From positions 43,392 to 107,391 of the forward strand of contig JAUVXE010000007.1 of assembly GCA_030603745.1 (NCBI GenBank): a stretch of DNA of 64,000 bases, in the 5' to 3' direction. The DNA comes from Coriobacteriia bacterium (GTDB lineage Bacteria > Actinomycetota > Coriobacteriia > Anaerosomatales > SLCP01). Numbering within the stretch: the stretch's first letter is position 1; every line of letters begins with the position of its first letter. The notes beneath the pieces were generated by a model that saw only the letters and a program-made list of their open reading frames with translations, searched no databases and was not told the DNA's origin. Made by a program: the position numbers and the translations under genes. This document shows, piece after piece, positions 18,531 through 38,884 of the stretch.

Positions 18531-18576
18531 TCCATTTTCACGGTCCGCGGGACGTTGCCGGTCGATCCCGGGACCC

Positions 18577-18592
18577 TGTAACAATTGTTACA
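18577..18592. promoter_or_regulatory. Perfect 16-bp palindromic operator TGTAACAATTGTTACA (site A)
   Basis: The palindrome is perfect. It lies 15 nt downstream of the predicted -10 box, at roughly +9..+24. Related copies occur at 26076..26091 and 33648..33663. Confidence 0.6.
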
Positions 18593-20239: not shown

Positions 20240-20245
20240 TCCTCG

Positions 20246-21256: not shown

Positions 21257-21306
21257 GCGCGCCTCGTTTCTGTGCGGTCGAGGTGGTACGGGGGGTCAGA
21301 GCGCGG

Positions 21307-22902: not shown

Positions 22903-22911
22903 GCCGTGAGC

Positions 22912-24165
22912 TTACCCCCGGCCTCTCAGTGCGCGCCACCAGCGGATCACCGGGTTGGCGCTCTGCACCTCGTACCGTCCGTGGATCAGCGAGGCGCTCT
23001 GCTCGATGAACGACTCGCCCGAGCCCCAGTGGCAGCCCTCGGTGCCGCAGGTGTCCACCGCGTTGACGGGGTAGACCATCGAATCGGGGTCGGCCACCGC
23101 CCTCACGTCGTGCGAACCGTGGCAGTCCCAGCACGACGGCGCGTCGGCGGCGCCGCGCTTGTAGGCCCGGCCGTGGTAGTAGTCGTCGTAGTTCTCCCAC
23201 TCGGCCGCGTGGCACACGCCGCACATCTGCTCGGAGGCGAAGTGGAGTTGCCGACGGGCCGCCTCGGTGTCGAGCCTCGCGATGGAGTGGCCGCCGTGGC
23301 ACGAACCGCAGGTGGCCGAGGAGTAGTCCCCCTCGGCGATGAGCTCGGCGTGGATCGAGCCGGCGTACTCCTCGGCGGAGGTCGAGTGCTCGTGGCAGGC
23401 GGCGCAGGCCAGTCCGGCGTTCACGCGCCAGACCGGCGTGGCGTCGGGGCGGTCGTGGTAGTTGAAGTCCACGTGGCACTCGACGCAGGTGTTGTCGCGG
23501 TGCGCGGTGCGGTCGAGCCCGGTCACGTGGAGCGAGCGGGTCGCCCCGCCGTCGGACTTGGCGAGGTTCGGGTCGCCGTGACAGGCGAGGCAGCCGTTCT
23601 CCACGTCGTAGGTGAACTCCTCGGCGGTGCGCCACTCGACGCCGACCGCCCGGTGGCACTCGTCGCAGTCGGTGCGCGTGTGGCACATCATGCAGCGGGT
23701 GCGCAGCTCGGTCAGCGAGGGCTCGACGTGCGGCGTCTCGGCCCAGTCGGGCGTGTGGCTCTCCGGCCGCATGCGTCCGGTATAGGCGCCGTGGCACTTC
23801 TCGCACTCGCCGGTCGCGATGGTGCCCATTGGCCCGTGGCGCAGGTCGTGACAGTTCCAGCAGTCCTTCATGGTGGGCTTCACCGTGCCGGCCGGGCTGT
23901 GCGGGAAGACCGTGTGGCAGCTGCTGCACGCGTAGAGCATGTGCGACGCGTGACGGAAGATGACCCGCGGGTCCTTTCCGTCCGCGATGGTGCCGTGACA
24001 GACCTTGCAGGTGCTGCCGTAGACCGGCGCACCCGTGTCGACCTCGACCGTGCCCCCCTGGGCGAACGCGGGTGCGGCGAACGCGAGCATCACGATGCAC
24101 GCGAGCGCTGCCGCCACGATCGCCGAGACGTGGATGCCGGTCCGCGCCTCGATCCTTAGGATCAT
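22912..24165 (-). CDS. Secreted 13-heme c-type cytochrome
   Basis: 417 aa with 12 CxxCH motifs plus CGTEGCH (CX4CH). The signal peptide is AAALACIVMLAFAAPAFA. The first six hemes form the same module as in the 20-heme protein. The C-terminal part is homologous to the 7-heme protein (YDDYYHGRAYKRGAADAPSCWDCHGSHD). Confidence 0.9.
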   Translation of the reverse strand: MILRIEARTGIHVSAIVAAALACIVMLAFAAPAFAQGGTVEVDTGAPVYGSTCKVCHGTIADGKDPRVIFRHASHMLYACSSCHTVFPHSPAGTVKPTMKDCWNCHDLRHGPMGTIATGECEKCHGAYTGRMRPESHTPDWAETPHVEPSLTELRTRCMMCHTRTDCDECHRAVGVEWRTAEEFTYDVENGCLACHGDPNLAKSDGGATRSLHVTGLDRTAHRDNTCVECHVDFNYHDRPDATPVWRVNAGLACAACHEHSTSAEEYAGSIHAELIAEGDYSSATCGSCHGGHSIARLDTEAARRQLHFASEQMCGVCHAAEWENYDDYYHGRAYKRGAADAPSCWDCHGSHDVRAVADPDSMVYPVNAVDTCGTEGCHWGSGESFIEQSASLIHGRYEVQSANPVIRWWRALRGRG

Positions 24166-24213
24166 CGTCCCCTACCCTTCCTGTCAGCTGAACGGGCGTC
24201 CCCTCGCCCGGAC

Positions 24214-25098
24214 CTACCTTCCGAAGATCCCGGCGATCGCCGAACGCACCCGCTGGAACAGGGAGTAGAGCGGGTTCGCCTCGAGCACGTCGCGCTGCCC
24301 GTGGATCAGCTCCGCGTAGGCGACGTAGTCCACGTTGGGATCGGTGTGGCACCCGGGAGCGGTGCACGTCTCGGTGAGCCTCGTCTCATGGACCATCGAG
24401 TCACGGTCCGAGGACGGGCGGATGTCGTGCCAGCCGTGGCAGTCCCAGCACGCCGGGGCGTCTTCGGCGCCCCGCTTGTAGGCGCGGCCATGGTAGTAGT
24501 CGTTGTAGCTCTCCCAGTAGTCCTCGTGGCAGCGGCCGCAGACCTCCCAGCCGTTCGCGTGAAGCGCGGCGCGGCCCTCATCGTCGATCTCGACGATGTC
24601 GTGCGCGCCGTGACAGCTGCTGCAGATCGGCTTCTCCGCCGCGTCCGGACCCGGCACGCCGTTGCCGTTCCCGTTGACCTCGATGCGGTGGACCCCCTGT
24701 CCGACCTCGAAGTTCTGGTCCTGGTGACAGTTCTTGCAGGCCGACCCGGCCTCGCGGCGCCAGTCCTGGGACGCCGTGGTGTGCGGCGCGGTGAAGGCGA
24801 AGTCGATGTGGCACCCGGCGCACTGCACGGCGGCGTGCGGACCGGCCTCGAGCTCGGCCGCGTCGACGTAGTAGCTCACGAGACGGTCCTCCCGCAGGCG
24901 GATGAGGTTCTCATCGCCGTGGCAGACGAGACAGCCGGCCTTGGCCGCCGTGGGCAGCGTGAAGTCGACGTCGTAGCCGTCGAACTCGATGGTGTGGGTC
25001 CCGACCGTGCTCTCTTGCGCGTATGCCAGTGCGGGAAGCGCGATCAGGACGGCGAGGACCGTCAGCGTGATCGTCAGTGTCCGGTGCGCTGGTGTCAT
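24214..25098 (-). CDS. Secreted 7-heme c-type cytochrome, partner of the b-type cytochrome
   Basis: Uses the internal ATG 25098 of track ORF 24214..25338. The signal peptide is LTVLAVLIALPALAYA. There are 6 CxxCH motifs plus CTAPGCH. Its start overlaps the cyt b stop by 4 nt (ATGA). Confidence 0.85.
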   Translation of the reverse strand: MTPAHRTLTITLTVLAVLIALPALAYAQESTVGTHTIEFDGYDVDFTLPTAAKAGCLVCHGDENLIRLREDRLVSYYVDAAELEAGPHAAVQCAGCHIDFAFTAPHTTASQDWRREAGSACKNCHQDQNFEVGQGVHRIEVNGNGNGVPGPDAAEKPICSSCHGAHDIVEIDDEGRAALHANGWEVCGRCHEDYWESYNDYYHGRAYKRGAEDAPACWDCHGWHDIRPSSDRDSMVHETRLTETCTAPGCHTDPNVDYVAYAELIHGQRDVLEANPLYSLFQRVRSAIAGIFGR

Positions 25099-25940
25099 TC
25101 TGCCTCTCCGGTCGAGGGGCTCAGTGCCGGGCTCCCGTGGGCCTCTCCGTGTCCGTGGGAGTCGTGGTGGTCGGCCCCGCCCAGTCCGAAGAAGCTCTGG
25201 AAGGCGGGGAAGTCCTCCGTCATCGACAGGTAGGCGTGCACCGTGGTGAGGATGATGAACAGCCAGTTGATGATGTAGTGGGCGGTACGCGCGTACCATC
25301 CGGCGAGGTCGGTCGAGCCCACGAGCGCTCCGAGCCACCAGCTCAGCAGGACCTCGCGCGGGCTGTAGCCGAAGATCATCGGCGTGGCCACGAGCGCGAA
25401 GCCCGTGTAGGCCTGCAGGATCATCAGCGGCACGAAGAGTGTGTAGGTGCCCTTCTGCATCACGTTGTACTTCCCGAGGTGTGGCTTGGAGGACTTCACG
25501 AAGATGTAGTACAGCACTACTTTCGGCGCGGTCACTATGTCTTCCTTCGTGATCGCGAACTCTTTGTAGTCACGCTGCCGCGAGAAGAAGGCGTACCACA
25601 AGCGCCACACGAGGTTGATCGTGACGATGATCATGAAGACGTAGTGCACGTAGCGCATCGGGGTACGGCCACCGTCGAAGAACGGGAACCGGATGTACAT
25701 CCCCGAGATGCCGAGCGCGAACATCGAGAAGACGTGCTGGAAGTGGAGGAACTTCGGGAGGAACGGGACGGGCGGTCCCTCGTGGTGGGGCCACTGCTTA
25801 CCGATGAAACGCTTCTTGACGCGTCCGGTGAGCACGTTGCCGATGAAGTGGCCGGACAGGCCGAGCACCACGACCACGTACAGGCTCGTGAAGACGACGT
25901 CCAGCCATACGTTGAACCCGGTCAGACTGATCTCCGACAC
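25095..25940 (-). CDS. FdnI/HydC-family membrane b-type cytochrome (putative menaquinol-interacting subunit)
   Basis: 281 aa and polytopic. It carries the family-typical GKYNVMQKGTYTLFVPLMILQAYTG (compare E. coli FdnI GKYNAGQK). Conserved His residues sit in TM helices (HFQHVF, YVHYVF, TAHYIINW, TTVHAYL). GTG start follows a GGGAGTAGGGG RBS. Confidence 0.8.
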   Translation of the reverse strand: MSEISLTGFNVWLDVVFTSLYVVVVLGLSGHFIGNVLTGRVKKRFIGKQWPHHEGPPVPFLPKFLHFQHVFSMFALGISGMYIRFPFFDGGRTPMRYVHYVFMIIVTINLVWRLWYAFFSRQRDYKEFAITKEDIVTAPKVVLYYIFVKSSKPHLGKYNVMQKGTYTLFVPLMILQAYTGFALVATPMIFGYSPREVLLSWWLGALVGSTDLAGWYARTAHYIINWLFIILTTVHAYLSMTEDFPAFQSFFGLGGADHHDSHGHGEAHGSPALSPSTGEAE

Positions 25941-26075
25941 CCCCTACTCCCTGTCACGCGCATCGCACGCTGCGACGACGCGAAACCTCGAGAACCCGTC
26001 CCGCCCTGTCGCGTCGATCCGCTCGCGCGGCAGAACCGCCGCGCTATGCCGGACGCGAGCGGTCGTGGGTGAGTT

Positions 26076-26091
26076 CGTAACAGCAGTTACA
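26076..26091. promoter_or_regulatory. Palindromic operator CGTAACAGCAGTTACA (site C)
   Basis: GTAAC-N4-GTTAC core identical to sites A and B. It lies about 135 nt upstream of the cyt b start, in the 200-bp intergenic gap. Confidence 0.45.
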
Positions 26092-26142
26092 TTTGACCAT
26101 AGCCCCCCGTGAGAGGCAAGCGGGAACCGCCCTCGGCGGCCG

Positions 26143-26391
26143 TCAGACGTCCTCGAACGAAGCGGACGCCGTGGGCTCGAGATCCGCCCTGCCGAGGAGC
26201 TCCAGCGCCCGGTCCACCTCGGCGGGCTCAAGGCGCAACGCGATCCCGCAGAGCCCCGTCCCGAGGGTCTTGGGGGCCGGCACGGGGACGACGTCGATCC
26301 CGAGGTCTTTCAGGAGCTGTTCCGCCGAGAGCGCCCGGTGGGTCGACCCGAACCCGAGCACGGTGAACAGGCGCGGCTCGCGCACGGTCAC
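26143..26391 (-). CDS. DUF3343-like small protein (putative S/Se carrier)
   Basis: GTG 26391 overlaps the desulfurase stop (GTGA). The 82-aa product begins VTVREPRLFTVLGFGSTHRALSAEQLLKDLGIDVVPVPAPKTLGTGLCGIALRL, the typical DUF3343 pattern as I recall it. Confidence 0.65.
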   Translation of the reverse strand: MTVREPRLFTVLGFGSTHRALSAEQLLKDLGIDVVPVPAPKTLGTGLCGIALRLEPAEVDRALELLGRADLEPTASASFEDV

Positions 26392-27557
26392 GATGCCAGC
26401 TCCCGGAGTGCCGAAAGCACGGTGTCGACCTGCTCTGCGGTGTTGCCCCACCCCACGCCGAAACGCACCGCGCCGCACTCAAGCGTTCCCACGGTCTCGT
26501 GCGCCCAGGGGGTGCAGTGCAGCCCGGCCCGTGCCGCGATGCCGTATGCGCGGTCGAGCTCGTAGGCGATCCTGTCGGAGTCGAGGGTGTCGTGCACGAC
26601 GGTGACGATCGGCACCCTCGGCACGCCCGGAGGCGGGCCGAGCACTCGGAAGCCCTCGATCGCGAGCACCCCCTCGTGCAGGCGACGGACGAGCTCGGCC
26701 TCGGCGGCACGGAGCGTGGCGCCCTCGGCCTTAAGGAGGGCCGCGGCGGCGCCGAGTCCGACGATCCCGGGCGTGTTGGCGGTACCGGCCTCGTAGCGGT
26801 CGGGACGCTCGGCAGGCATCTCGAGCGAGTCGGAGGCTCCTCCGCCGGTGCCGCCCTCGATCTGCACCTCGAGCTCGAGGCCCGGGACGAGGTAGAGCAG
26901 CCCGATCCCCTGCGGGCCGAGCATGCCCTTATGGCCCGAGGTCGCGTAGGCGTCGGGGGCGAGCGAGGCGAGGTCGACGTCGAGGTGCCCGGCGCCCTGG
27001 GCGCCGTCCACGAGCATGAGCGCGCCGTGCTCGTGCGCGATGTCGGCCAGGTCGCCGATGAGCTGGACCGTGCCGGTCAGGTTCGAGGCGTGCTGGCAGA
27101 CGACCGCGCGGGTGGGCGCGGCGCCGACCTCGCGCTCGACGTCGGCCGGGTCGACGAGCCCGGTGGGATCCGCCTTCACCACCACGACCTCCACGCCGGC
27201 GCGGGCGAGGTGCGCGAGGGGACGTGCGACGGCGTTGTGCTCCATGGAGCCGACCACCACCCGGTCGCCCGGTCGCAACGAGCCCTTGAGCATGAGGTTG
27301 CACGCGGCCGTGCAGCCGGACTGGAAGAGCAGGTCGCGGGTGTCTGGCACGCCGAGGAGCGTCGCACAGGCGCGACGGGCCTCGAGGATCGCGCGCGACG
27401 AGGCGAGCGCCAGCGCGTAGGCCCCGCGCCCCGGGTTGCCGCCGAGTTCGGTGAGCGCGCGCACCACCGCGTCGACGACGGGCCCCGGCTTGGGCCACGA
27501 GCTCGCGCCATGGTCGAAGTAGGCCACCGGCGGGCGGGTCTCCTCGGCGGGCGACAC
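26388..27557 (-). CDS. Class-V aminotransferase-fold cysteine desulfurase / selenocysteine lyase family protein
   Basis: GTG 27557 lies 2 nt after the mogA stop. The PLP-lysine motif is ATSGHKGMLGPQGIGLLY. The N-terminus YFDHGASSWPKPGPVVDAV is typical for the family. The upstream part of the track ORF is artefact. Confidence 0.8.
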   Translation of the reverse strand: MSPAEETRPPVAYFDHGASSWPKPGPVVDAVVRALTELGGNPGRGAYALALASSRAILEARRACATLLGVPDTRDLLFQSGCTAACNLMLKGSLRPGDRVVVGSMEHNAVARPLAHLARAGVEVVVVKADPTGLVDPADVEREVGAAPTRAVVCQHASNLTGTVQLIGDLADIAHEHGALMLVDGAQGAGHLDVDLASLAPDAYATSGHKGMLGPQGIGLLYLVPGLELEVQIEGGTGGGASDSLEMPAERPDRYEAGTANTPGIVGLGAAAALLKAEGATLRAAEAELVRRLHEGVLAIEGFRVLGPPPGVPRVPIVTVVHDTLDSDRIAYELDRAYGIAARAGLHCTPWAHETVGTLECGAVRFGVGWGNTAEQVDTVLSALRELAS

Positions 27558-27559
27558 CG

Positions 27560-28045
27560 CTAGTGGCCCCCGCCCGCGATCATCTCGACGGCGTGCGTGA
27601 GCTGGTCGGCGATGAAGGAGAACGACTCGCGGGCGGCCTTCTCGCTGCCGGGAAGGTTGACGATGAGCGTGGTGCCGCGCAGGCCGGCGGTCCCGCGGGA
27701 GAGCATGGCGCGCGGGGTGACCTTGAGGCTCTCGGCCCGGATGTGCTCGGCGATGCCGGGAGCGCGCCGGTCCGAGACCCGGTCGGTGACCTCGGGCGTG
27801 ATGTCGCGCCGGCTGAAACCGGTGCCACCGCAGGTCAGAACCACGTCGGCCTCGTCGAGGTCGGCCATCTGGATGAGCGAGTCGGCGATGCACTCGTCCT
27901 CGTCAGGGCAGACGTGGTAGGCGATGACGAGCCACCCGCGCTCCTCCACGAGCTCGATGAGCGCCTGGCCGGCGGTGTCCTCGGCGCCACCCGCGGCGCG
28001 GGTGTCCGAGCAGGTCAGGATCCCGACCCTCAAGTCGCGTCCCAC
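27560..28045 (-). CDS. MogA/MoaB-family molybdopterin adenylyltransferase-like protein
   Basis: 161 aa with VGILTCSDTRA...VVLTCGGTGFSRRDITPE...LPGSEKAA, the MogA/MoaB signature. Confidence 0.85.
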   Translation of the reverse strand: MGRDLRVGILTCSDTRAAGGAEDTAGQALIELVEERGWLVIAYHVCPDEDECIADSLIQMADLDEADVVLTCGGTGFSRRDITPEVTDRVSDRRAPGIAEHIRAESLKVTPRAMLSRGTAGLRGTTLIVNLPGSEKAARESFSFIADQLTHAVEMIAGGGH

Positions 28046-28046
28046 G

Positions 28047-28550
28047 TCACTCCTTCCGGTCGCACGTCCCGTCGCCGAGGGCGAGGACCGTGATGGCGTC
28101 GCCGGCGCGGACGTCTCCGGGCTCGCGCACGACCGCGAAGATGCCCTCGCGGGGCATGACGCAGTCGCCGGCCTGGTAGTAGATGGCGCACTTAGTATGG
28201 CAGACCTTCCCGATCTGGCTCACCTCGAGCACCGCCTCCTCGCCGACGCGGAACGTGGTGCCGATCGGCATCGCGAGGAGGTCGATCCCCTCGGTGGTGA
28301 TGTTCTCGGCGAAGTCGCCTGCGGCGACGTCGAGTCCCTTGGCGACCATCGAGTCGATCGACTCTTGCGCGAGCAGGCTCACCTGCCGGTGCCAGTCGCC
28401 GGCGTGCGCGTCACCCGCGAAGCCGCGGTCGAACACGAGGGTGCCCTCCTCACCGCGGGTCTTGCGCACCGTCTTCTTCTCGGAAAGGTTCACCGACACG
28501 ACCTTCCCGGGACCGGGGAGCGCAGGGGTGGCGGTCTCGTTCTCGTTCAT
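28047..28550 (-). CDS. MOSC-domain protein
   Basis: 167 aa with [10 protein letters not shown]...[14 protein letters not shown]...[18 protein letters not shown], a MOSC beta-barrel-like pattern. Located within the Moco operon. Confidence 0.7.
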
Positions 28551-29107
28551 CGTTCCTCCTCGCGGGTCCAGCGGCCGGATGCGCCGCCCTCCTTCTCGAG
28601 CAGCATGACCTCGCCGAGGACCATGCCCCGGTCGACGGCCTTACACATGTCGTAGAGCGTCAGCCCGGCCACCGCGGCGGCCGTGAGCGCCTCCATCTCG
28701 ACGCCGGTCGGCCCGGTGGTCTCGCAGACCGCGACGATCCGGACCGCGGCGAGGCCGTCGCCGGTCGGATCGGGCTCCTCGGCGGTGAGGTCGACCGAAG
28801 CGTGCGTGAGCGCGATCGGGTGACACATCGGGACGAGGTCCGCGGTGCGCTTCGAGGCCATGATGCCGGCGATGCGCGCGGTGGCGAATACGTCTCCTTT
28901 GGGCGCGCGGCCCTCGACGATCATCGCGAGCGTCTCGGGACGCATCGTGATGCGAGCGGAGGCCACGGCGCGCCGGTGCGTGTCGGGCTTGGCGCCCACG
29001 TCGACCATGCGGGCCTCGCCACGCTCGTCGAGGTGCGTGAGCCGCCCGTGGGGGCCGGCGGCACCGGCCGCGGCGGGCGGCACGGCGGGAGGTTCGGTGG
29101 CGCTCAT
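28547..29107 (-). CDS. moaC: Cyclic pyranopterin monophosphate synthase MoaC
   Basis: Uses the internal ATG 29107 of track ORF 28547..29377. Motifs: [16 protein letters not shown]...[28 protein letters not shown]...[23 protein letters not shown]. Confidence 0.9.
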
Positions 29108-29114
29108 CGGGCGG

Positions 29115-30137
29115 TCACCCTCCGATCTGGGACATGCCGCGCGCGGTGCCGACCCGGGAGCTGTGGCTCTCGGGCTTGGTCGCGAGCGCGGTGCGGATGA
29201 GGTCACGGACATCGGCGTCGGTGCCGCCTCGCAGCACCGAGCGCACGTCGATCTCCTCGTCGGAGAAGAGGCAGGCGCGCAGCCGGCCGTCGGCGGTGAG
29301 GCGCAGGCGGTTGCACTCGCCGCAGAAGTGGTGCGAGAGCGGCGTGATGACGCCCACGGTCCCCGGGGCGCCCGCATAGCGGTAGTAGCGCGCCGGCCCC
29401 CAACCGCCCGGGGCGTCGCCGCGCCGGACGGGCTCGAGCGCGCCGAGGCCGGCCGCGGTCCCCTCGGCGGTGAGGCGCTCGAGGATCTCCTCGGCGGAGA
29501 CGTGGTCGGCGCGCGTCCAGCCCTCTCCGGCCGGCTCGCACTCCCCGCCCTCGGACGCGCCGCCCACCGGCATGTACTCGATGAAGCGCACGTGCACCGG
29601 GCGGTCGAGCGTGAGCCGCGCGAAGGCGAGCAGGTCCTGGTCGAGGCCGCGGACCACGACCGCGTTCACCTTGACGGGGCCCATGCCTGCCGCGAACGCG
29701 GCGTCGAGGCCCGCCAGCGCGTCGGCGAGCTTGCCGCCGCGCGTGACGCGCTCGAAGACCGCGGGGTCGAGCGAGTCGAGCGAGATGTTGACGCGCGTGA
29801 GGCCCGCCTCGACGAGCGGGGCGGCGTAGCGCGCGAGCAGCGTGCCGTTGGTGGTCAGCGCGATCGCCTCGAGCCCGGTGAGCGCGCGGAGCCGCCGGAC
29901 GTGGCCGACGACCCCCTTGCGCACGAGCGGCTCGCCGCCGGTCAGGCGGATCTTGGAGATGCCCTCCCCGACCGCGATCGCCGCGAACCGCTCGATCTCC
30001 TCGAGCGAGAGGATCTCGTCGTGGTCCTTCCACGCGACGCCCGCCGCGGGCATGCAGTAGACGCACCGCAGGTTGCACCGGTCGGTGAGCGAGATGCGCA
30101 GGTAGTCGATGCGCCTGCCGAACGCGTCGATCGCCAC
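29115..30137 (-). CDS. moaA: GTP 3',8-cyclase MoaA (radical SAM)
   Basis: 340 aa. Contains the radical-SAM [10 protein letters not shown] motif and the C-terminal [19 protein letters not shown] second-cluster motif. Confidence 0.95.
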
Positions 30138-30706
30138 TACGCCCCGCCCCCCGTCGCCGTCGGGCCCGTGCCGGTCCGCCGCGACCGCGCCTCGGCCCCG
30201 CCGAGGAACCGCTCCTCGATGAGGTCCGCGACGCCCGCCGCGTCGTCGAGCGCGAAGACCGGCGCCGGAGAGCCCGCGAGCGCCTCGACGTCGGTGACGA
30301 GGGCGAAGAGCTCCTCGGCGGCGCAGATCGGTTCGGCCGAGCGCGCCGCGCGCACCACCTCGACGAGCACCGGGGCGGTGGCGCGGAACCCCTCGGTCAG
30401 CAGGAGGTCGAGTCCTTCGGCGGCGGCGAGCGACGCGAGGTCGGCCAGCGAGCGCTCGCCGTCCACCCGCCGGATCACGCCGAGGCGGTTCGGGGCGCTC
30501 ACCATCGTCATGACCGCCCCGGCCCGCTCGTGGCGCCAGGTGTCCTTGCCGGGCACGTCGATGTCGGTCTCGTGCGCGTGATGCTTCGCGGTGCCGACCC
30601 GCCAGCCGCGGGAGGCGAGCTCGGCGATCACGCCCTCGAGCAGGGTCGTGCGGCCCGACTTACTCTTGCCCACCACGCTGACCACCGGAAGCGCCAGCCC
30701 GCTCAT
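30137..30706 (-). CDS. mobB: Molybdopterin-guanine dinucleotide biosynthesis adapter MobB
   Basis: Uses the internal ATG 30706 of track ORF 30137..30787. Contains a P-loop (VVGKSKSGRTTLL) and AKHHAHETDIDVPGKDTWRH. Confidence 0.8.
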   Translation of the reverse strand: MSGLALPVVSVVGKSKSGRTTLLEGVIAELASRGWRVGTAKHHAHETDIDVPGKDTWRHERAGAVMTMVSAPNRLGVIRRVDGERSLADLASLAAAEGLDLLLTEGFRATAPVLVEVVRAARSAEPICAAEELFALVTDVEALAGSPAPVFALDDAAGVADLIEERFLGGAEARSRRTGTGPTATGGGA

Positions 30707-30707
30707 C

Positions 30708-30923
30708 TCAGAAACAGCCGAGGTCACAGTTGTGGACCTTGATCCCGATCGAGTCGGCCGCCGCGCCCGCCACCTTGTAGGGGACACCGCTGTCCTCGGC
30801 GAGCTTCCTCAGCACCGGACAGGTGATGCGGCCTTCGCGGGCCTTCTCCCGCACCGCCTCTGTCAGCTCGGGCGTGACCTGCTCGGCCCACCTGGGGTCG
30901 ATCTGCTTGGGTGAACCGCTCAC
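30708..30923 (-). CDS. Small conserved-looking protein of unknown function in Moco operon (71 aa, C-terminal CDLGCF)
   Basis: The ORF fits exactly between moeA (4-nt overlap) and mobB (1-nt gap). Codon usage matches its neighbours. I do not recognise the family. Confidence 0.5.
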   Translation of the reverse strand: MSGSPKQIDPRWAEQVTPELTEAVREKAREGRITCPVLRKLAEDSGVPYKVAGAAADSIGIKVHNCDLGCF

Positions 30924-32167
30924 GGCGATCCCTCCTCCATGTCGAGTCGGACGACCTCGGCCGGGGTGCCGGCCGCGAAGAACCCTTCACCTTGCGGGAG
31001 CACGAGCAGGCAGTTGCCCTTGTGGGCGGCGGTCAGCAGCGCCGAGGACTGCGAGCCGGAGAGCGCGACCACGAGCCCGCCGTCCTCCCCGCGCTCGAGC
31101 CGGGCGCGCAGGTAGTAGCGGCGGTCCTGTTTCTTCTTGACGTCGTGCGCGAGCGTGGCGACCGAGCGCGGGCGGTCGAGCGCGGTGTGCCCCTGCATGT
31201 AGCGCAGTGCGGGACGCACGAACACCTCGAAGCCCACGTAGGTCGAGGTCGGGTTGCCCGGAAGGCCGAAGAAGGGCACCCCGTCGATGGAGCCGAGCGT
31301 CTGCGGGTTGCCCGGCCGCATCGCGACCTTGCAGAACTCCATCTCGCCGAGCTCCTCGAGCACGGGCTTGACGAAGTCGAAGTCGCCCACGCTCACCCCG
31401 CCGCTCGTCACGATGAAGTCGGCCTCGGCGGCGGCGCGGGCGAACGCCTCCCGGGTCGCGTCGGGGTCGTCGCGCACGATCGGGAAGCGCAGCGGCTCGC
31501 CGCCCGCGGCGAGGACCTGGGCGGCGATCGAATAGGAGTTCGAGTTGCGGATCTTGCCCGGGCCGGGCTGCTCGGCGACCTCGACGAGCTCGTCGCCGGT
31601 CGAGAGCACCGCCACACGGGGGCGGCGGTGGACCTCGACCGTCGCATGCCCCGCCGAGGCGGCCAGTCCCACCGCGGCCGGGCCGACGACCTCGCCCGCG
31701 AGCAGCACCGCGTCTCCCGCGGCGACCTCCTCGCCCCTCAGGCGGACGTTCTCGCCGGGCGCGACGGTGCGGCTCACGTGGACCGTGCCGCCCGTGGAGC
31801 CCGCGGCCTCGCCGGGGGTCGTGTACTCGACCATCACCACCGAGTCCGCCCCGGGAGGCATGGGCGCGCCCGTCATGATCCGCGCAGCCTGTCCGGGACC
31901 GACCTCGAGGTCGGAGTGGTCGCCGGCGGCGATGTGGGAGACGACGTCGAGCGTGACCGGCACGCCGTCGACTGCCGTGGCGAGATCGGCGGCGCGCACC
32001 GCGTAGCCGTCCATCGCCGAGTTGTCGAACGGCGCGATGTCGATGTCGGAGCGCACGTCGGCGGCGAGCACCCTGCCGAGGGCCTCCAGGATCGGCACGC
32101 GCTCGGTCGCGAGGACTCGGCAGCGCGCGAGCACGAGGTCGCGGGCCTGCTCCACGGTGAGCGTCAT
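30920..32167 (-). CDS. moeA: Molybdopterin molybdenum/tungsten transferase MoeA
   Basis: Uses the internal ATG 32167 of track ORF 30920..32503, with an ATGA overlap on the upstream stop. Motifs: IAPFDNSAMDGYAVRAADL, VLSTGDELV, IVTSGGVSVGDFDFV, LPGNPTS. Confidence 0.9.
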   Translation of the reverse strand: MTLTVEQARDLVLARCRVLATERVPILEALGRVLAADVRSDIDIAPFDNSAMDGYAVRAADLATAVDGVPVTLDVVSHIAAGDHSDLEVGPGQAARIMTGAPMPPGADSVVMVEYTTPGEAAGSTGGTVHVSRTVAPGENVRLRGEEVAAGDAVLLAGEVVGPAAVGLAASAGHATVEVHRRPRVAVLSTGDELVEVAEQPGPGKIRNSNSYSIAAQVLAAGGEPLRFPIVRDDPDATREAFARAAAEADFIVTSGGVSVGDFDFVKPVLEELGEMEFCKVAMRPGNPQTLGSIDGVPFFGLPGNPTSTYVGFEVFVRPALRYMQGHTALDRPRSVATLAHDVKKKQDRRYYLRARLERGEDGGLVVALSGSQSSALLTAAHKGNCLLVLPQGEGFFAAGTPAEVVRLDMEEGSP

Positions 32168-33588
32168 CGGGCATCCTCCTCGGCGGGGTTCGTGACGATG
32201 CGTTCGGGGTGCGTGTAGACGGTGATCTTGCCGCCGCGCGCATACCCTGCGAGCGTGATGCCGAGTTCGGCGGCGATCTCGGCGGCCAGGTCGGTGACCG
32301 CGGTGCGGGAGACGACCACCGGCACCCCGGCCTTGGCGGCCTTGACGGCCATCTCGTAGGAGATGCGGCCGGTGGAGAGCAGCACCGCGTCGCGCGCGGG
32401 GACGCGATCGAGCCACGCCCGGCCGAGGAGCTTGTCGAGCGCGTTGTGGCGCCCCACGTCCTCCCGCACGAGCAGCAGCTCGCCGCCGCGCGCCAGCCCG
32501 CACGCGTGCATGCCGCCGGTGTCCCGGTACGACGTGGCCGCGCGCGCCATCTGCCCCATGAGGTCGTAGAGGTCCTGGCTGTCGACCCGCAGCCCGCTCT
32601 CGACGCGGGCGAGCCCGCGGGCGTGCCCGACCGAGGAGAACGTCACGCCCTTGCCGCAGCCGCTCGTGACGTAGCGGGTCTTGTAGACCATGTCGTCGGG
32701 GACCGCCTCGGCGGTGTTCGCGTAGACGAGGCCGCGCTTGTGGTCGACGTCGATGGAGGCGAGCGCGTCGCGGTCGGCCATCAGCCCCTCGGCGACGAAG
32801 AAGCCCGCCGCCATCTCCTCGAGGTCGTCGGGCGTGGCCTGCACCGTCGCGACCTCGACGTCGTTCATGTAGAGCGTGATCGGGCGCTCGGAGGGCATGC
32901 CGCGGGGGCGGCGCGTTCCGACCTCGATCACCGAGACGACGACCCGCTCGGCGTCGCGCGCGTCACGCCGCTTCGGCGCCTGCTCGCGGGCGTCGGCGAG
33001 CTCCTCGGGCGTGTTCACGTTCAGGAAGCTCTTGAGCCCGGGGTCGACGCCACGCAGCGAGTCGACCGGGACCTCGACGACCGTGACCTCGCGAAAGACC
33101 GCGACGAGGCGGCGTCGGCCGCTCGCGAGCACCGTGCGGGCCACCGGCAGACACGCGCGGGAGTAGAGGGCGAGCAGCGGTTCGGGACCCTTGTCGGTCA
33201 CCGGTACGACCACGTCGGCGCCGTCGCGGGCCTCCCACAGCGCACGGACGACCGCGGCCGAGACGTGCGGCATGTCGGCGGCCACGGCGAGCACCCACTC
33301 GTCGGGTGCCTCGGCGAGCGCGGTGACGAGCCCGCCGAGGGGGCCCTGATAGGGTATCTCGTCGGTGAGGACCCGCACGTCGGACGGCAGGCCCGCGTCG
33401 GCGAGCGCCTCGGGACGGTTCGTGACGACGATCGTGTGGGCGCAGACCTCGCCGACCGCGGCGGCGACACGGGCTACGAGCGCCTCGCCATCCACGGGCA
33501 GGAGCGTCTTGTCCACACCCATCCGCATGGAGCGGCCACCGGCCAGCACCGCGGCGGTACAGGGAAGGATGGCGGGTTCGGGGGTCAC
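32164..33588 (-). CDS. MobA-FdhD fusion (Moco guanylyltransferase fused to formate dehydrogenase sulfurtransferase/accessory protein)
   Basis: The N-terminal half is MobA-like: AAVLAGGRSMRMGVDKTLLPV...AADMPHV...FLNVNTPEEL. The C-terminal half is FdhD-like: YVTSGCGKGVTF...GGMHACGL...EDVGRHNALDKLLG...VVSRTAVTDLA. GTG 33588 follows a GAGAGGA RBS. Confidence 0.85.
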   Translation of the reverse strand: MTPEPAILPCTAAVLAGGRSMRMGVDKTLLPVDGEALVARVAAAVGEVCAHTIVVTNRPEALADAGLPSDVRVLTDEIPYQGPLGGLVTALAEAPDEWVLAVAADMPHVSAAVVRALWEARDGADVVVPVTDKGPEPLLALYSRACLPVARTVLASGRRRLVAVFREVTVVEVPVDSLRGVDPGLKSFLNVNTPEELADAREQAPKRRDARDAERVVVSVIEVGTRRPRGMPSERPITLYMNDVEVATVQATPDDLEEMAAGFFVAEGLMADRDALASIDVDHKRGLVYANTAEAVPDDMVYKTRYVTSGCGKGVTFSSVGHARGLARVESGLRVDSQDLYDLMGQMARAATSYRDTGGMHACGLARGGELLLVREDVGRHNALDKLLGRAWLDRVPARDAVLLSTGRISYEMAVKAAKAGVPVVVSRTAVTDLAAEIAAELGITLAGYARGGKITVYTHPERIVTNPAEEDAR

Positions 33589-33647
33589 GGATCCAGTCGT
33601 CCTCTCGTCGCCGGCGCGCCGGCCGTCCCGGGCGGAGCGCACCACAT

Positions 33648-33663
33648 TGTAACCATTGTTACA
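33648..33663. promoter_or_regulatory. Palindromic operator TGTAACCATTGTTACA (site B)
   Basis: Differs from site A at 1 position. It lies 60 nt upstream of the mobA-fdhD GTG. Its promoter-distal-to-proximal half overlaps a TACAAT -10-like hexamer on the minus strand. Confidence 0.55.
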
Positions 33664-33682
33664 TTCCCGTTGCCACCGGCCA

Positions 33683-34795
33683 TCATCGGTCTCCTCGCAC
33701 CCTGACCCGCACCGCCGAGGCCTTGAACACGACCTGCACGAACGAGCCCGCCTCGAGTCCCAGCTCGCGCACCGAGGCGCGCGAGACACGCGAGGCGAAC
33801 GGACTGCCCGCGACGTCGATCGTCATGTGGTGCATGGCCCCCCACGACTGCACCTCGGTGACCGTGCCTGCGAAGCGGTTGCGCGCGGTCGACTGCGGGA
33901 TCTCCGCGTCGCCCTCGAACAGGAGCACGTCCTCCGGACGCACGCCGAGGAGCACCGGGGTCCCGACCGCCTCCGAGCCGGCCGCGAAGACGACCGCCCC
34001 GCCGATGTCGACCCCCACGAGCCCCTCGGCCGAGGAGACGACCTCGCCCTCGAGCGGCTCCCCCGCGCCGAGGAAGGTCGCGGTCCAGGCGTCGGGCGGC
34101 AGCCCGGTGATCTCGTCGACCGGGCCGCTCGCGACCGCGACACCGTCGCGCAGGATCATCATGGTGTCGGCGACCGCCATCGCCTCGTTCTGGTCGTGCG
34201 TGACGTAGAGCGTGGTCATCGACTCCTCGCGGATGATCCGCGCGAAGTCCTGGGCGAGCCGGCCTTTGATGAGCGGGTCGAGCGAGGAGAGCGGCTCGTC
34301 GAGGAGGAGCACCCGCGGTCGCAGCACGAGCGCGCGAGCGAGCGCGACCCGTTGCGCCTCGCCGCCGGAGAGCGTGAGCGCCGAGCGGTCCTCCCATCCC
34401 GCGAGCCCCACCCGCTCGAGCGCCTCGGCGACCGCGCTCCGCCGTGCCCCGGAGAGCATGCGGCGGAGCCTCAGGCCGTAGGAGACGTTGTCGGCGACGG
34501 TGCCCTTGAACAGGTACGGACTCTGGAACGCGGCCGCCATCTGAAGGCGGGCCGCCTTGTCGCGATGCGTGACCTCGCGCCCGTCGAGCAGGACGGTGCC
34601 CTCGTCGGCCGGCTCGAGCAGGCCGAGGATCGCGAGCAGCGTCGACTTGCCGGCACCGGAGGGGCCGAGCAGCGCGAGCGTCTCGCCCGGCTCGATGCGC
34701 ACCTCGGCCACGTCGACGACGGTACGCTTGCCGTAGGTCTTGCGGATCCCCGTCGCCTGCAGCGAGATGCCGGCGGGTGTGGTTCGCGTGGTCAT
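33683..34795 (-). CDS. tupC: Tungstate/molybdate ABC transporter ATP-binding protein with C-terminal TOBE-like domain
   Basis: 370 aa with Walker A (GPSGAGKST), signature motif (LSGGEAQRVALARAL) and Walker B (LLLDEP). An OB/TOBE-like tail ends VRVRVRG. Confidence 0.8.
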   Translation of the reverse strand: MTTRTTPAGISLQATGIRKTYGKRTVVDVAEVRIEPGETLALLGPSGAGKSTLLAILGLLEPADEGTVLLDGREVTHRDKAARLQMAAAFQSPYLFKGTVADNVSYGLRLRRMLSGARRSAVAEALERVGLAGWEDRSALTLSGGEAQRVALARALVLRPRVLLLDEPLSSLDPLIKGRLAQDFARIIREESMTTLYVTHDQNEAMAVADTMMILRDGVAVASGPVDEITGLPPDAWTATFLGAGEPLEGEVVSSAEGLVGVDIGGAVVFAAGSEAVGTPVLLGVRPEDVLLFEGDAEIPQSTARNRFAGTVTEVQSWGAMHHMTIDVAGSPFASRVSRASVRELGLEAGSFVQVVFKASAVRVRVRGDR

Positions 34796-34796
34796 C

Positions 34797-35504
34797 TCAG
34801 CTCCTCTCGAACCGCTCGTTCGAGTGCTGGTACCACGTGAGGAACCCGTTCATCGCGAACGTGATGGTCATGAGGATCAGTCCGAGCGCGAGCGCGAGGC
34901 CGAAGTCGCCCTTGCGCGACTCCTGCACGATCGCCGTGGTGAGCACGCGGGTCTGCCCCTCGATGTTGCCGCCGACCATCATGACGGCACCGACACCGCG
35001 CACCACGGCGCCGAACCCGCTCGCGACAGCCGCGAGCACGCCCAGGCGCGCCTCCCTCAGCGCGAGGAGGGCCTCTTGGACCCTCGATGCGCCGAGGGAG
35101 CGCGCCTGCAGCCGAAGCTTGTACGGCACCGACGCCACGGCTGCGGCGGTCAGGCCGGCGATGATGGGCGCGGAGATCAGGGTCTGCGCGATCGACATCG
35201 CGTCCTTCGTGTAGAGCAGGCCGAGGAAGCCGAGCGGACCCTGGCGAGAGAGGAACATCATCACGACGAGGCCGATGACCACCGGGGGCACGGCCATCGC
35301 GGTGTTCATGAGCGCGACGAGGAGCCTGCGTCCCCGGAACCGGGTCGCCCCCATGACGAAACCCATGGGAGCGCCGAGCACGACTCCGGCCGCCGTGGAG
35401 ACGATGGCGACCTCGAACGTCACCGCGATGACGTTCCAGAGCTCCGTCGAGCCCTGGAAGAGCAACGTGACCGCTGTGACGACTGCTTCGGCGAACACCT
35501 GCAT
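34797..35504 (-). CDS. tupB: Tungstate ABC transporter permease TupB-like
   Basis: 235 aa and polytopic. It has the TupB-like GAVMMVGGNIEGQTRVLTTAIVQESRKGDFGLALALGLILM. Confidence 0.75.
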   Translation of the reverse strand: MQVFAEAVVTAVTLLFQGSTELWNVIAVTFEVAIVSTAAGVVLGAPMGFVMGATRFRGRRLLVALMNTAMAVPPVVIGLVVMMFLSRQGPLGFLGLLYTKDAMSIAQTLISAPIIAGLTAAAVASVPYKLRLQARSLGASRVQEALLALREARLGVLAAVASGFGAVVRGVGAVMMVGGNIEGQTRVLTTAIVQESRKGDFGLALALGLILMTITFAMNGFLTWYQHSNERFERS

Positions 35505-35513
35505 GGCGTGGGC

Positions 35514-36395
35514 CTACTCCGCGTCGGGGATGAAGAGGGGCTCGCCGTACGTGTCGACCCCGAAGCTTTCGATGATCGCCTGGCCGGCGGGCGAGACGAT
35601 CCAGTCGGCGAAGGCCTGCGCGCCCTCGAGGTTGCCCGCGTCGGTCACGACGATCACGCCGTACGGGTTGAAGAGCGCCTCATCGCCCTCGACCGCGACC
35701 GTGAGGTCGAGGCGGTCCCGCATCGCCAGGTACGTGCCGCGGTCCGCCAGCGTGTACGCCCCGATCTCGGACGCCATGGTGAGCGCCTCGCCCATGCCCT
35801 GCCCGATCGAGAGGTACCACTCCCCGGCAGGCTCGATGCCCGCGAGCGACCAGAGCGAGCGCTCCGTGGTGTGGGTGCCGGAATCGTCGCCACGCGAGAC
35901 GAACACGTGCGCACCGCCGGCGATCGCGGTCAGGGCCGCCGCCGCGTCACTCGTGCCGGCGATGCCGGCGGGGTCCGCCTCGGGGCCGACGATCACGAAG
36001 TCGTTGTACATGACGTCGCGGCGCTCGACGCCATAGCCCTCGGCGACGAACTCCTCCTCCTGCGACCTGGCGTGCACGAGCAGGACGTCGGCATCACCTG
36101 CTCGGCCGATCTCGAGCGCCTGGCCGGTCCCGACCGCGACCACGCTCAGGCGGTACCGCGGATAGGCGTCCTCGAAGGCCGGGACCAGCTCGGTGAACAG
36201 GCCCGAGTCCTCGGTCGAGGTGGTCGAGGCGATGATCACGTTCGTGACCTCGACCTCTTCGACGGGTTCGGGTGCGGACGGCTCCTCGGCGACCTCTTCG
36301 GCGCCGCACGCGGCGAGACCGGATACGAGTACGAGCGAGAGGAGCAGTGCGAGTGCCTGCCGCTTGAGCGCGGGCGAAGGACGAAGCTCGAGCAT
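35514..36395 (-). CDS. tupA: Tungstate-binding lipoprotein TupA-like
   Basis: ATG 36395 follows an AAAGGAGA RBS. A lipobox is present (LVLVSGLAACG). TupA-type motifs: ASTTSTEDSGL, VGTGQALEIGRAGDADVLLVHA, SRGDDSGTHTTE, FNPYGV. Confidence 0.8.
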   Translation of the reverse strand: MLELRPSPALKRQALALLLSLVLVSGLAACGAEEVAEEPSAPEPVEEVEVTNVIIASTTSTEDSGLFTELVPAFEDAYPRYRLSVVAVGTGQALEIGRAGDADVLLVHARSQEEEFVAEGYGVERRDVMYNDFVIVGPEADPAGIAGTSDAAAALTAIAGGAHVFVSRGDDSGTHTTERSLWSLAGIEPAGEWYLSIGQGMGEALTMASEIGAYTLADRGTYLAMRDRLDLTVAVEGDEALFNPYGVIVVTDAGNLEGAQAFADWIVSPAGQAIIESFGVDTYGEPLFIPDAE

Positions 36396-36402
36396 GTATG
36401 GG

Positions 36403-36510
36403 TCTCCTTTCCACCGGGAGGCGAGGAGGTTTCCCTTCCCCACCCTATCGGTCCGGGACCCGTGGCCCGCTCGGCTGGGCTGTAGGGCATCCGGACTCGG
36501 AGATATGTGG
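36403..36510 (-). promoter_or_regulatory. Moco/Tuco-type riboswitch aptamer candidate in the tupA leader (RBS-sequestering)
   Basis: The mRNA reads CUCCGAGUCCGGAUGCCCUAC...CCGAUAGGGUGGGGAAGGGAAACCUCCUCGCCUCCCGGUGGAAAGGAGA-cccauac-AUG. The 3' strand of the closing helix (GGAGA) is the tupA Shine-Dalgarno. The ordered blocks match those at 18421..18530. Confidence 0.6.
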
Positions 36511-36532
36511 CCGCTGAAGCGACCGCACGAAG

Positions 36533-36562
36533 ACGATACCGCATCCGTCCGCGACGCGACAA
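36533..36562 (-). promoter_or_regulatory. Possible promoter for the tupABC leader
   Basis: The minus strand reads TTGTCG-18 nt-TATCGT, about 25 nt upstream of the aptamer. The match to consensus is only moderate. Confidence 0.3.
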
Positions 36563-36596
36563 CTCTCCCGACCGGAGGAGCGCGTTCGCGGGTACC

Positions 36597-37490
36597 CTAC
36601 CGCTCCACCGCGGAACGCAGGTGGCCGAGGAACGCCTCGGCGGCGCGGGTGAGCGTCGTGCGCGGGGTGACGATGTAGAGCGGGCGCGAGACGGGAAAGC
36701 CCTTGGCCCTGACGGTGGCCACGGTGCCGAGCTCGAGCGCCTTCTCGGCGACCCATGAGCTCACCATGCCGAGCCCGAGTCCTCCCTCGACCGCGCTCAC
36801 GATCGCCTCGCCGGTGCCGAGCTCGGTGACCACGTGGAGCTCGGCCACGTCCACACCCGCCGAGCGGAGGGCCCCCTCGGCGATCTGGCGCGTGCCCGAG
36901 CCCTCCTCGCGCATGACGAACGGCTCGGCGGTCACCTCCGCGATATCGACCCGCTCCGCAGTGGCGAACCGGTGGTCGGGCGGGCAGATGAGCACGATGT
37001 CGTCGGTGCCCATGGGTTCGAAGTCGGCACGCGCTCCCTTGACGACCGCGCCGGTCACGCCGAGGTCGGCCTCGCCCGCCACTACAGCGTCGACGACCTG
37101 CGCGGTGTCGGCGACCGCGATCGAGACCGCCACCTCGGGGTTGGCGCGCAGGAAGCGCCCGAGCAGGCGCGGCAGCACGTACTGTCCCGGGGTGGTGCTC
37201 GCGGCCAGGGTCAGCCGCCCGGTGACCTGCTCGCTCATGCGCGCGAGGTCCTCACGCGCCTGCTCGAGTTCGCCGAGGACCGCCCGCGCATGCGGCAACA
37301 GGGCGGTGCCCGATTCGGTGAGTTCGATCTTGCGGTATCCGCGGTCGAGCAGCGTCACGCCGAGGTCGGACTCGAGGGCCTGGACCTGCATCGTGACCGC
37401 GGGCTGCGAGATGCCCATCTGCCGGGCGGCCGCGGAGAACGAGCCGTGGTCGACCACCATCACGAACGCTCTGATCTGTGCGAGGTTCAC
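36597..37490 (-). CDS. LysR-family transcriptional regulator
   Basis: GTG 37490 starts VNLAQIRAFVMVVDHGSFSAAARQMGISQPAVTMQVQALESDLGVTLLDR, a LysR wHTH. The remainder resembles a LysR substrate-binding domain. The track ORF start 37613 is an artefactual extension. Confidence 0.85.
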   Translation of the reverse strand: MNLAQIRAFVMVVDHGSFSAAARQMGISQPAVTMQVQALESDLGVTLLDRGYRKIELTESGTALLPHARAVLGELEQAREDLARMSEQVTGRLTLAASTTPGQYVLPRLLGRFLRANPEVAVSIAVADTAQVVDAVVAGEADLGVTGAVVKGARADFEPMGTDDIVLICPPDHRFATAERVDIAEVTAEPFVMREEGSGTRQIAEGALRSAGVDVAELHVVTELGTGEAIVSAVEGGLGLGMVSSWVAEKALELGTVATVRAKGFPVSRPLYIVTPRTTLTRAAEAFLGHLRSAVER

Positions 37491-37603
37491 CGCACGCCTC
37501 CCGTCGGTCCGGCGCCCGCGCGCCCGGTCGAGATGTAATGCTACCTGAACCGGTTCGCCCGTGGGACGTTTAGCGGGCCGATGGTGGTGGTACCATCCCC
37601 GGC

Positions 37604-38059: not shown

Positions 38060-38067
38060 TCGCTGAC

Positions 38068-38883: not shown

Positions 38884-38884
38884 C

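Follow-up and report, generated by a model that had tools for sequence, protein, structure and literature searches.

The stretch analysed here, hereafter the window, comprises 64,000 nucleotides of contig JAUVXE010000007.1 of a Coriobacteriia bacterium, with a G+C content of about 72%. At positions 26143–33588 it contains ten consecutive open reading frames (ORFs), all on the minus strand, the first of which joins the guanylyltransferase MobA to the formate dehydrogenase (FDH) chaperone FdhD in one polypeptide. An initial annotation had described this block as a pterin-cofactor operon with ATGA and GTGA overlaps at several junctions. The ORF list, the inspection of start codons and ribosome-binding sites (RBSs), and Pfam searches bore out its gene content, domains and junctions. 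The genes, from the fusion gene onwards, are as follows (PLP, pyridoxal phosphate; MPT, molybdopterin).

32164–33588, minus strand: mobA-fdhD fusion, 474 aa; PF12804 (NTP_transf_3), 134.3 bits (cut-off 27), and PF02634 (FdhD-NarQ), 256.6 bits (cut-off 27.2)
32980–33561, minus strand: MobA domain of the fusion, residues ~10–203
32911–32979, minus strand: predicted disordered linker of the fusion, residues 204–226
32188–32898, minus strand: FdhD domain of the fusion, residues ~231–467, with the loop cysteine Cys311
30920–32167, minus strand: moeA, metal insertase, 415 aa; MoeA_N, MoCF_biosynth and MoeA_C
30708–30923, minus strand: orf71, small Cys-rich protein, 71 aa; no Pfam match
30137–30706, minus strand: mobB, 189 aa; PF03205, 124.7 bits; TIGR00176, 112.9 bits (cut-off 76.2)
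29115–30137, minus strand: moaA, radical-SAM protein with a C-terminal GG; Radical_SAM and Mob_synth_C
28547–29107, minus strand: moaC, 186 aa; PF01967, 179.6 bits
28047–28550, minus strand: small MOSC-domain protein, 167 aa; PF03473, 49.5 bits
27560–28045, minus strand: moaB/mogA-type MPT adenylyltransferase, 161 aa; PF00994, 110.1 bits, and NCBIfam
26388–27557, minus strand: csd, class-V PLP desulfurase/selenocysteine-lyase-like protein, 389 aa; PF00266 (Aminotran_5), 254.6 bits
26143–26391, minus strand: DUF3343/Se_S_carrier protein, 82 aa; PF11823, 51.2 bits (cut-off 25)

The genes are tightly packed. Overlaps of the ATGA or GTGA type join the fusion gene to moeA (ATGA, 32167–32164), moeA to orf71 (GTGA, 30923–30920), moaC to the MOSC gene (ATGA, 28550–28547) and csd to the DUF3343 gene (GTGA, 26391–26388), mobB and moaA overlap by 1 nt (TAGTG, 30139–30137), and the other junctions are gaps of 1–7 nt. 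Neither consensus sigma-70 promoters nor intrinsic terminators were found at 24000–38000, which is uninformative in an actinobacterium of this G+C content. The moeA product scores 387–419 bits against the NCBIfam MoeA/Glp models, under their equivalog cut-offs, and the match of the MOSC protein to the MoaC/MOSC fusion model NF011069 lies in that model's MOSC half.

The 474-residue fusion is reproduced throughout the lineage. In a search of 5.8 billion proteins with the window fusion, 120 of the 120 best matches listed carry both Pfam domains; they are 442–513 aa long, 66–100% identical to the query and, where named, derive from metagenome-assembled genomes of Coriobacteriia, Anaerosomatales or Actinomycetota. 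When the most divergent fusion available (locus L071, 47% identical) served as the query, all 120 best matches listed were again fusions. With a single genome scanned per species, the architecture was found in at least 79 species-level genomes. Almost all of these belong to that lineage, which corresponds to the OPB41/Anaerosomatales order, from which the first isolates have been reported (PMC9686372). A sequencing or assembly frameshift uniting separate mobA and fdhD genes has a single point in its favour, namely that the two are separate genes in well-studied model organisms. However, a single ORF of 440–530 aa with both Pfam domains occurs in all 240 best hits from independent assemblies, and in the fusion alignment the frame is preserved across linkers of differing length and sequence. 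Together with the 79 genomes, this rules out an artefact, the probability of which we consider negligible. The C-terminal half also passes the FdhD profiles PF02634 (256.6 against 27.2 bits) and TIGR00129 (188.7 against 140.9 bits), while missing the stricter model NF001943 (189.8 against 269 bits). There was no curated model of a MobA/FdhD fusion among the NCBIfam matches, and our literature search found no paper describing one. The architecture is a new element, composed of domains that all belong to known families and obeying standard pathway logic.

The MobA half aligns with residues 7–193 of the 194 residues of Escherichia coli MobA and shares its signature motifs LAGGxxxRMG, GPLxG, D-x-P and NVNTPEE; the aligned motifs of the window fusion include LAGGRSMRMGVDK, GPLGG and NVNTPE. 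The predicted domain superposes on the structure 1e5k with a TM-score of 0.84 (Foldseek). An assignment to the cytidylyltransferase MocA or another nucleoside triphosphate transferase was rejected because the MobA models score far higher (MocA 54 bits, PucB 26 bits) and MobA structures head the fold matches. The FdhD half aligns with the structures 2PW9 and 4PDE, the predicted domain reaching a Foldseek E-value of 7e-20 and a TM-score of 0.82 against 2pw9, and 0.78 against 4pde. Its loop cysteine, C311 in TSGCGKG, is equivalent to E. coli Cys121 and is invariant in 29 aligned fusions, as is REDVGRHNA.DK, the binding motif for the nucleotide of GDP or bis-molybdopterin guanine dinucleotide (bis-MGD); most invariant columns of this alignment lie in the FdhD half (C311, C363 and REDVGRHNA.DK). 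The second cysteine of the CxxC motif is missing from the loop. This position is known to vary among FdhD proteins, and the E. coli loop cysteine accepts sulfur (PMC10609526). Both halves can be recognised from sequence and fold, and each would be expected to have the activity of its family.

An AlphaFold model built on the 29 fusions contains two confident domains. The linker (residues 204–226) and the cysteine loop (308–317) have pLDDT values (predicted local distance difference test) below 50, and the predicted TM-score (pTM) of the whole model is 0.54. The FdhD cysteine loop is disordered in crystal structures as well (PMC10609526). The model suggests that the domains are joined by a flexible tether of about 23 residues and not by a rigid channel; channelling of the last maturation steps, as proposed in the initial annotation, is therefore not indicated in the form of a rigid assembly. 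In a divergent subclade of fusions (P0391, P0392, P0393, P0398 and P0413), the LAGGxxxRMG and NVNTPE motifs are degenerate while the FdhD half is intact, and the MobA domain of these proteins may perhaps be only a docking module. In L071, which also falls in this subclade, the fusion gene (L071:4973–6604) has mobB, moaB and a Sec-FDH-like gene after it (Sec, selenocysteine).

The unit extends beyond the ten genes to which the initial annotation had confined it, overlooking a tungstate transporter and two tungsten-type riboswitches. One riboswitch and the tupABC genes lie directly upstream and are part of the same conserved gene string (Moco and Tuco, molybdenum and tungsten cofactor):

36597–37646, minus strand: LysR-family regulator; HTH_1 and LysR_substrate in Pfam; maximal ORF, start not fixed
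36388–36514, minus strand: P3-less Moco/Tuco riboswitch aptamer; RF01055, 56.3 bits (gathering threshold 36)
35514–36395, minus strand: TupA-like tungstate-binding protein; PBP_like_2, 155 bits; NF041772 TupA, 184.4 bits (cut-off 400)
34797–35504, minus strand: ABC permease, TupB-like; BPD_transp_1
33683–34795, minus strand: ABC ATPase with a TOBE domain, TupC/WtpC-like; ABC_tran and TOBE; best NCBIfam match WtpC, 238 bits, below cut-off
33649–33662: palindrome GTAACCATTGTTAC, operator-like, between tupC and the fusion gene

Conservation of gene order was assessed by tblastn of the window proteins against 79 related loci. The tupABC genes lie directly upstream in 47 of the 59 loci with enough upstream DNA, and the LysR gene, which in the window has the orientation of the operon, is found upstream of it in most related loci. 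Among the 55 loci with enough downstream DNA, 48 keep the canonical order from the fusion gene to the desulfurase, 54 have the desulfurase downstream within the operon, and DUF3343, a short and divergent protein, was detected in 41. Two loci, L072 and L078, are rearranged and share the order LysR-moaB-csd-moaA-moaC; in L072 only, DUF3343 was detected after csd, and MOSC-fusion-moeA-orf71-mobB follow. Even in these loci, the desulfurase gene remains among the cofactor genes, directly 3′ of moaB. The operon is thus conserved across Anaerosomatales/OPB41, subsurface actinobacteria within the class Coriobacteriia, and its gene string would be co-transcribed.

The upstream riboswitch overlaps the RBS and start of tupA, and a second copy (18406–18535) precedes the FDH gene described below. 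Both score 56.3 bits against RF01055 (gathering threshold 36); the P3 columns are deleted in the cmscan alignment of the first copy, and the second likewise lacks P3. Moco riboswitch RNAs without P3 correlate with Tuco metabolism (Regulski et al., PMC2408646), and the tungsten type is assigned here by that correlation. In their above-gathering scores, deleted P3 and positions upstream of a tupA-like gene and a cofactor-using enzyme, the window copies agree with the known combination of P3-less riboswitch and TupABC, show no notable difference from it and are ordinary members. From these sequence features we infer that the cofactor metal would be tungsten, or possibly molybdenum. The binding protein is named TupA-like because it misses the NF041772 equivalog cut-off.

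A candidate client enzyme is encoded 8 kb downstream of the operon, by a gene for a molybdopterin oxidoreductase with a Tat signal. This gene and the remaining palindromes are:

26077–26090: palindrome GTAACAGCAGTTAC, upstream of the cytochrome b/multihaem genes
18578–18591, minus strand: third palindrome copy, followed by the second P3-less riboswitch (18406–18535), before the Sec-FDH gene
14522–18157, minus strand: Tat-exported selenocysteine FDH alpha subunit (client enzyme), with an in-frame UGA at 17522–17524

The neighbouring Sec-FDH invoked in the initial annotation is borne out by its in-frame TGA (17522–17524, in the motif EHQARI-U-HSSTVAGL), by a stable hairpin 3′ of this codon (−28.2 kcal/mol, z = −2.5), and by genes for the Sec machinery at 52.6–57.7 kb of the window, comprising tRNA-Sec, selB, selA, a DsrE-like ORF and a selD-like gene. 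All three related FDHs within reach (L058, L024 and L071) carry this TGA too. There was accordingly no Cys-containing FDH among these three, all having TGA, with which to separate roles in sulfur and in selenium supply.

Exact copies of the palindrome GTAAC-N4-GTTAC number three in the window, compared with an expectation of 0.2, and none of 100 shuffles attained this count. The copies lie in the gap between tupC and the fusion gene, in the gap between the DUF3343 and cytochrome b genes, and just upstream of the FDH riboswitch. The first is found at the same position in L001 and L079, the second is kept 116–200 nt upstream of the cytochrome b gene in about 20 related loci, and the third recurs upstream of FDH in L058 and L024. 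The palindrome is probably the operator of a regulator. Because it is common to the ten-gene block, the cytochrome genes and FDH, these probably form one regulon; and because a copy follows the DUF3343 gene, before the cytochrome b genes, the cofactor operon ends with DUF3343.

At ~1,211 aa, the alpha subunit of FDH is of unusual length, and its Pfam Molybdopterin match is stretched over residues 16–566 of the part following Sec, which suggests large insertions. The gene is surrounded by genes for many multihaem cytochromes c, NHL-repeat and tetratricopeptide-repeat proteins and cytochrome b (5265–13650 and 18695–25940), a layout resembling the cytochrome/molybdopterin cluster proposed for Fe(III) reduction in Parvivirga (PMC9686372). 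A 553-aa ORF at 10874–12535 has no Pfam match. In the sel cluster, the DsrE/TusD-like ORF (56223–56651; weak Pfam match, E 5e-4) lies between the selD-like gene and selA. A DsrE-like gene adjoins selA in L062 too, and the window ORF could encode a sulfur or selenium relay of the Sec pathway.

Between moeA and mobB, orf71 encodes a protein that matches no Pfam or NCBIfam model. C35, C66 and C70 are invariant, the C-terminus reads NCDLGCF, and the predicted structure is a small helical domain (pLDDT 79) for which no significant fold match was found in the Protein Data Bank (PDB; best E 0.64). It has 429 unannotated homologues of 70–73 aa, the 120 best listed being 70–100% identical. A profile search of 1.84 billion representatives yielded 513 relatives, and the best 150 of these (P0241–P0390) comprise 55 single-domain proteins, 77 tandem duplications and 18 longer proteins. 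The orf71-like domain occupies the extreme C-terminus in 138 of 149 relatives, ending in C-[QED]-L-G-[CA]-F. In P0325 it is followed by a strong MobB domain, the order of the window genes, and in P0329, P0331, P0354, P0358, P0379 and P0317 it follows a weak MobB-like P-loop domain. Judged from these fusions to MobB or MobB-like P-loop domains, orf71 is a MobB-associated module without a Pfam family, and the association is a new element. Identification as MoaD, TusA or Mop/TOBE was rejected, the protein having no match to Pfam or NCBIfam, no significant one in PDB, a predicted helical and not a beta-grasp fold, and no C-terminal GG. Nor is identity with the "FeS domain" of the PRK14494 MobB fusions supported, as the MobB-fused relatives miss those models in their orf71-like part.

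We consider it on balance probable that the gene string supplies a tungsten (possibly molybdenum) bis-MGD cofactor to the periplasmic Sec-FDH. The tungsten-type riboswitch would gate tupABC and thus tungstate uptake. MoaA and MoaC would make cyclic pyranopterin monophosphate; MPT synthase, with genes presumably elsewhere in the genome, would act next, after which MoaB/MogA would adenylate MPT and MoeA would insert the metal. Together with MobB and the Cys-rich MobB partner orf71, the MobA domain would add GMP to give bis-MGD, which would pass to the FdhD domain on the same polypeptide by way of the disordered linker of about 23 residues. C311 of the FdhD loop would then provide the terminal sulfido ligand, and insertion of the cofactor into FDH would follow. 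The csd product (Cys348) and DUF3343 (Cys48) would form a chalcogen-mobilising module dedicated to the cofactor pathway. Contacts of FdhD with MobA, MobB and MoeA1 have been seen by bacterial two-hybrid analysis in the tungsten-FDH pathway of Methylorubrum (PMC13197769).

Several points weigh against this reading. The genes for MPT synthase are found neither in the window nor within 10 kb of the fusion gene in any related locus. The initial annotation had likewise reported no moaD, moaE or moeB, and Pfam scans of all plausible ORFs in the 64-kb window were negative for MoaD, MoaE and MoeB/ThiF domains. A tblastn search of the window and the 79 loci (1.3 Mb) with approximate E. coli queries also found none, a search that is weak for the short MoaD. 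Because of this, the pathway as encoded in the window is incomplete; the three genes most likely lie elsewhere in the genome. The MobA half misses the TIGR02665 equivalog cut-off (111.2 against 151.85 bits), and its degenerate motifs in the divergent subclade indicate that tethering, not catalysis, may be what is selected. NF041772 is the only NCBIfam match of the TupA-like protein and lies below its cut-off, and the choice of tungsten over molybdenum is founded on correlation only. Given the palindrome that separates tupC from the fusion gene, the ten genes may be transcribed apart from tupABC. Finally, csd falls short of the TIGR01977 cut-off (346.4 against 377 bits), it lies nearest to TIGR01977/SclA, with a characterised member that acts on Sec, and DUF3343 is tied to selenium genes.

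The csd product has the PLP lysine K210 (SGHK210) and the catalytic cysteine C348 (GLHC348), both kept in orthologues, and DUF3343 has a single cysteine, Cys48, in a CG.A.R motif that shows at least 90% conservation across 44 orthologues. The best curated matches of csd are TIGR01977 (346.4 bits) and the SclA model NF040779 (287.3 bits; cut-off 525, missed), both above SufS, NifS and IscS, and the position equivalent to SclA H100 is Asn107. As the likeliest single reading, though with rather less than even confidence, we take csd and DUF3343 to make and carry a persulfide for FdhD, and perhaps also sulfur for MoaD. The constant position of the pair inside the cofactor operon and the conserved FdhD loop cysteine favour this, and both dedicated and housekeeping desulfurases feed Moco sulfuration elsewhere (IscS–FdhD, NifS4–XdhC; PMC10609526). 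The whole sulfur route is one that we infer. Of the relay proposed in the initial annotation, from desulfurase through DUF3343 to FdhD, the co-occurrence of both genes in the operon stands and the transfers themselves are putative. Provision of selenium for the Sec-FDH reads just as naturally, given the affinity of csd to TIGR01977 and SclA and the earlier description of DUF3343 with a Sec-lyase-family protein as a candidate module for selenium trafficking in Coriobacteriia (PMC5322559). Sequence alone does not decide between a sulfur and a selenium donor role. A selenium module, in which csd is a Sec lyase and DUF3343 carries selenium to SelD, is a real possibility, if a minority one in our judgement. 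It would be co-expressed with the cofactor genes as FDH needs both Sec and tungsten bis-MGD, and FdhD would draw its sulfur from a housekeeping desulfurase. The ranking of the curated matches speaks for it. Linkage to selD had led to the prediction of a Sec-lyase function for TIGR01977 (PMC2276186), and the characterised member SclA cleaves Sec, with cysteine as a competitive inhibitor. Comparative genomics ties DUF3343 to selenium genes, and a cluster of a Sec-lyase-family protein, DUF3343 and YedF adjoins selD, selA and selB in Slackia (PMC5322559). The client FDH is a selenoprotein in the window, L058, L024 and L071, the sel cluster of the window lacks a lyase of its own, and the operon end in L062 is adjoined by selA and the DsrE-like gene. 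However, with both curated cut-offs missed, csd is not an SclA orthologue by NCBI criteria, and this clade has no known residue that sets selenium/sulfur specificity. Lin et al., who proposed DUF3343 as a selenium or sulfur chaperone, noted that none of its subfamilies is specific to selenium and that it is also present where selD is missing (PMC5322559). Furthermore, in 54 of 55 loci, and in the rearranged operons, the pair follows moaB directly within the set of cofactor genes and is not with selD, selA and selB, which lie 26 kb away in the window.

In both gene orders, moaB and not the fusion gene is the linked neighbour of csd and DUF3343, a point in favour of a quite improbable alternative, in which the pair feeds an earlier step (MoaD thiocarboxylation, as IscS-TusA does in E. 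coli) or forms a split Moco sulfurase with the MOSC protein, rather than serving FdhD. MPT synthesis requires a source of persulfide, the MOSC protein is encoded two genes upstream, and the eukaryotic Moco sulfurase ABA3/MOCOS combines NifS-like and MOSC parts, an analogy on which the MOSC variant draws. Yet MoaD, MoaE and MoeB are not encoded in the operon or nearby, so that no acceptor is co-encoded; some operons with csd (L027, L042 and L062) lack the MOSC gene, which is linked to moaC, not to csd; and Moco sulfurases serve enzymes of the xanthine oxidase family, none of which was seen here. What probability the persulfide supply to FdhD and the selenium module leave falls to other sulfur roles, such as MoaD thiocarboxylation or partnership with MOSC, or to a dual role. 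A literature search found no link of DUF3343 to Moco or FDH, and the placement of an SclA-like/DUF3343 pair in a cofactor operon is a new element.

A bolder version of the persulfide route, which we consider unlikely, would see in the operon a complete finishing line, sufficient in itself, for the cofactor of FDH. In it, csd would place a persulfide or perselenide on Cys48 of DUF3343 for transfer to Cys311 of FdhD; guanylylation, sulfuration and delivery would proceed tethered to MobA without release of the cofactor; and the orf71-like family, Cys-rich and not recognised before, with an invariant C-x-L-G-C/A-F at the C-terminus, would be MobB's missing functional partner and account for what MobB does. 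Its far less likely extension, that these organisms do without MoaD/MoaE altogether and that the module also provides the dithiolene sulfurs, is in our view extremely improbable.

The system can be compared with several known ones. The FDH-specific bis-MGD chaperone-sulfurtransferases FdhD of E. coli and FdsC of Rhodobacter capsulatus, both fed by IscS, share profiles, fold, loop cysteine and nucleotide motif with the fusion, which likewise resides in a locus with FDH. They differ in that the window FdhD is covalently joined to MobA, has a single loop cysteine (TSGCGKG) instead of CxxC, and would be served by a dedicated desulfurase-like gene product in place of the housekeeping IscS. Fusions of consecutive proteins are common in Moco synthesis (PRK14489 MobA/MobB, PRK14491 MobB/MoeA, PRK14500 MoaC/MobA and PRK14499 MoaC/MOSC), but these join biosynthetic enzymes to one another, whereas the window fusion joins a biosynthetic enzyme to an enzyme-specific delivery chaperone. 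The MoeA1-MobB-MobA-FdhD network of the tungsten FDH of Methylorubrum extorquens employs the same late-acting proteins, with moeA and mobB near each other in both organisms. In Methylorubrum, however, these proteins are not fused, the organism is an aerobe and its FDH is cytoplasmic, while the window has FdhD and MobA fused, a Tat-exported FDH with Sec, and a small Cys-rich gene between moeA and mobB. In the Sec-lyase/DUF3343/YedF clusters of Slackia heliotrinireducens, a member of the same bacterial class, and for SclA of Enterococcus faecalis (EF2568), the same two families are adjacent. The Slackia pair sits with selD, selA, selB and yedE/yedF, whereas the window pair closes a cofactor operon with the sel genes 26 kb off, and the window csd scores below the SclA and TIGR01977 cut-offs.

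The fusion provides natural "Rosetta-stone" evidence for a direct passage of bis-MGD from MobA to the FDH-specific chaperone, which has so far been supported by interaction assays only. The operon offers a compact and conserved test bed for FdhD sulfur supply outside the IscS paradigm and for the roles of DUF3343 and TIGR01977-type lyases, and the link between orf71 and MobB is a concrete new candidate lead on the long-unclear role of MobB. The tungsten signature suggests that the "molybdenum" FDH of cultured Anaerosomatales (PMC9686372) may be a tungsten enzyme; the assignment of the metal bears on the reduction of CO2 and on iron respiration in the deep subsurface. These findings do not overturn the current understanding of the cofactor pathway.

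Beyond the LysR gene and divergent from it, genes for a CbiM/CbiQ/ABC-ATPase transporter (energy-coupling-factor type, for metal) occupy 37825–40593 on the plus strand. Further along, a c-di-GMP-II riboswitch (44894–44981; RF03169, 60.5 bits) immediately precedes the gene for a 1,406-aa surface protein (40688–44908) with repeated DUF7507, DUF11, CARDB and SdrD_B domains.

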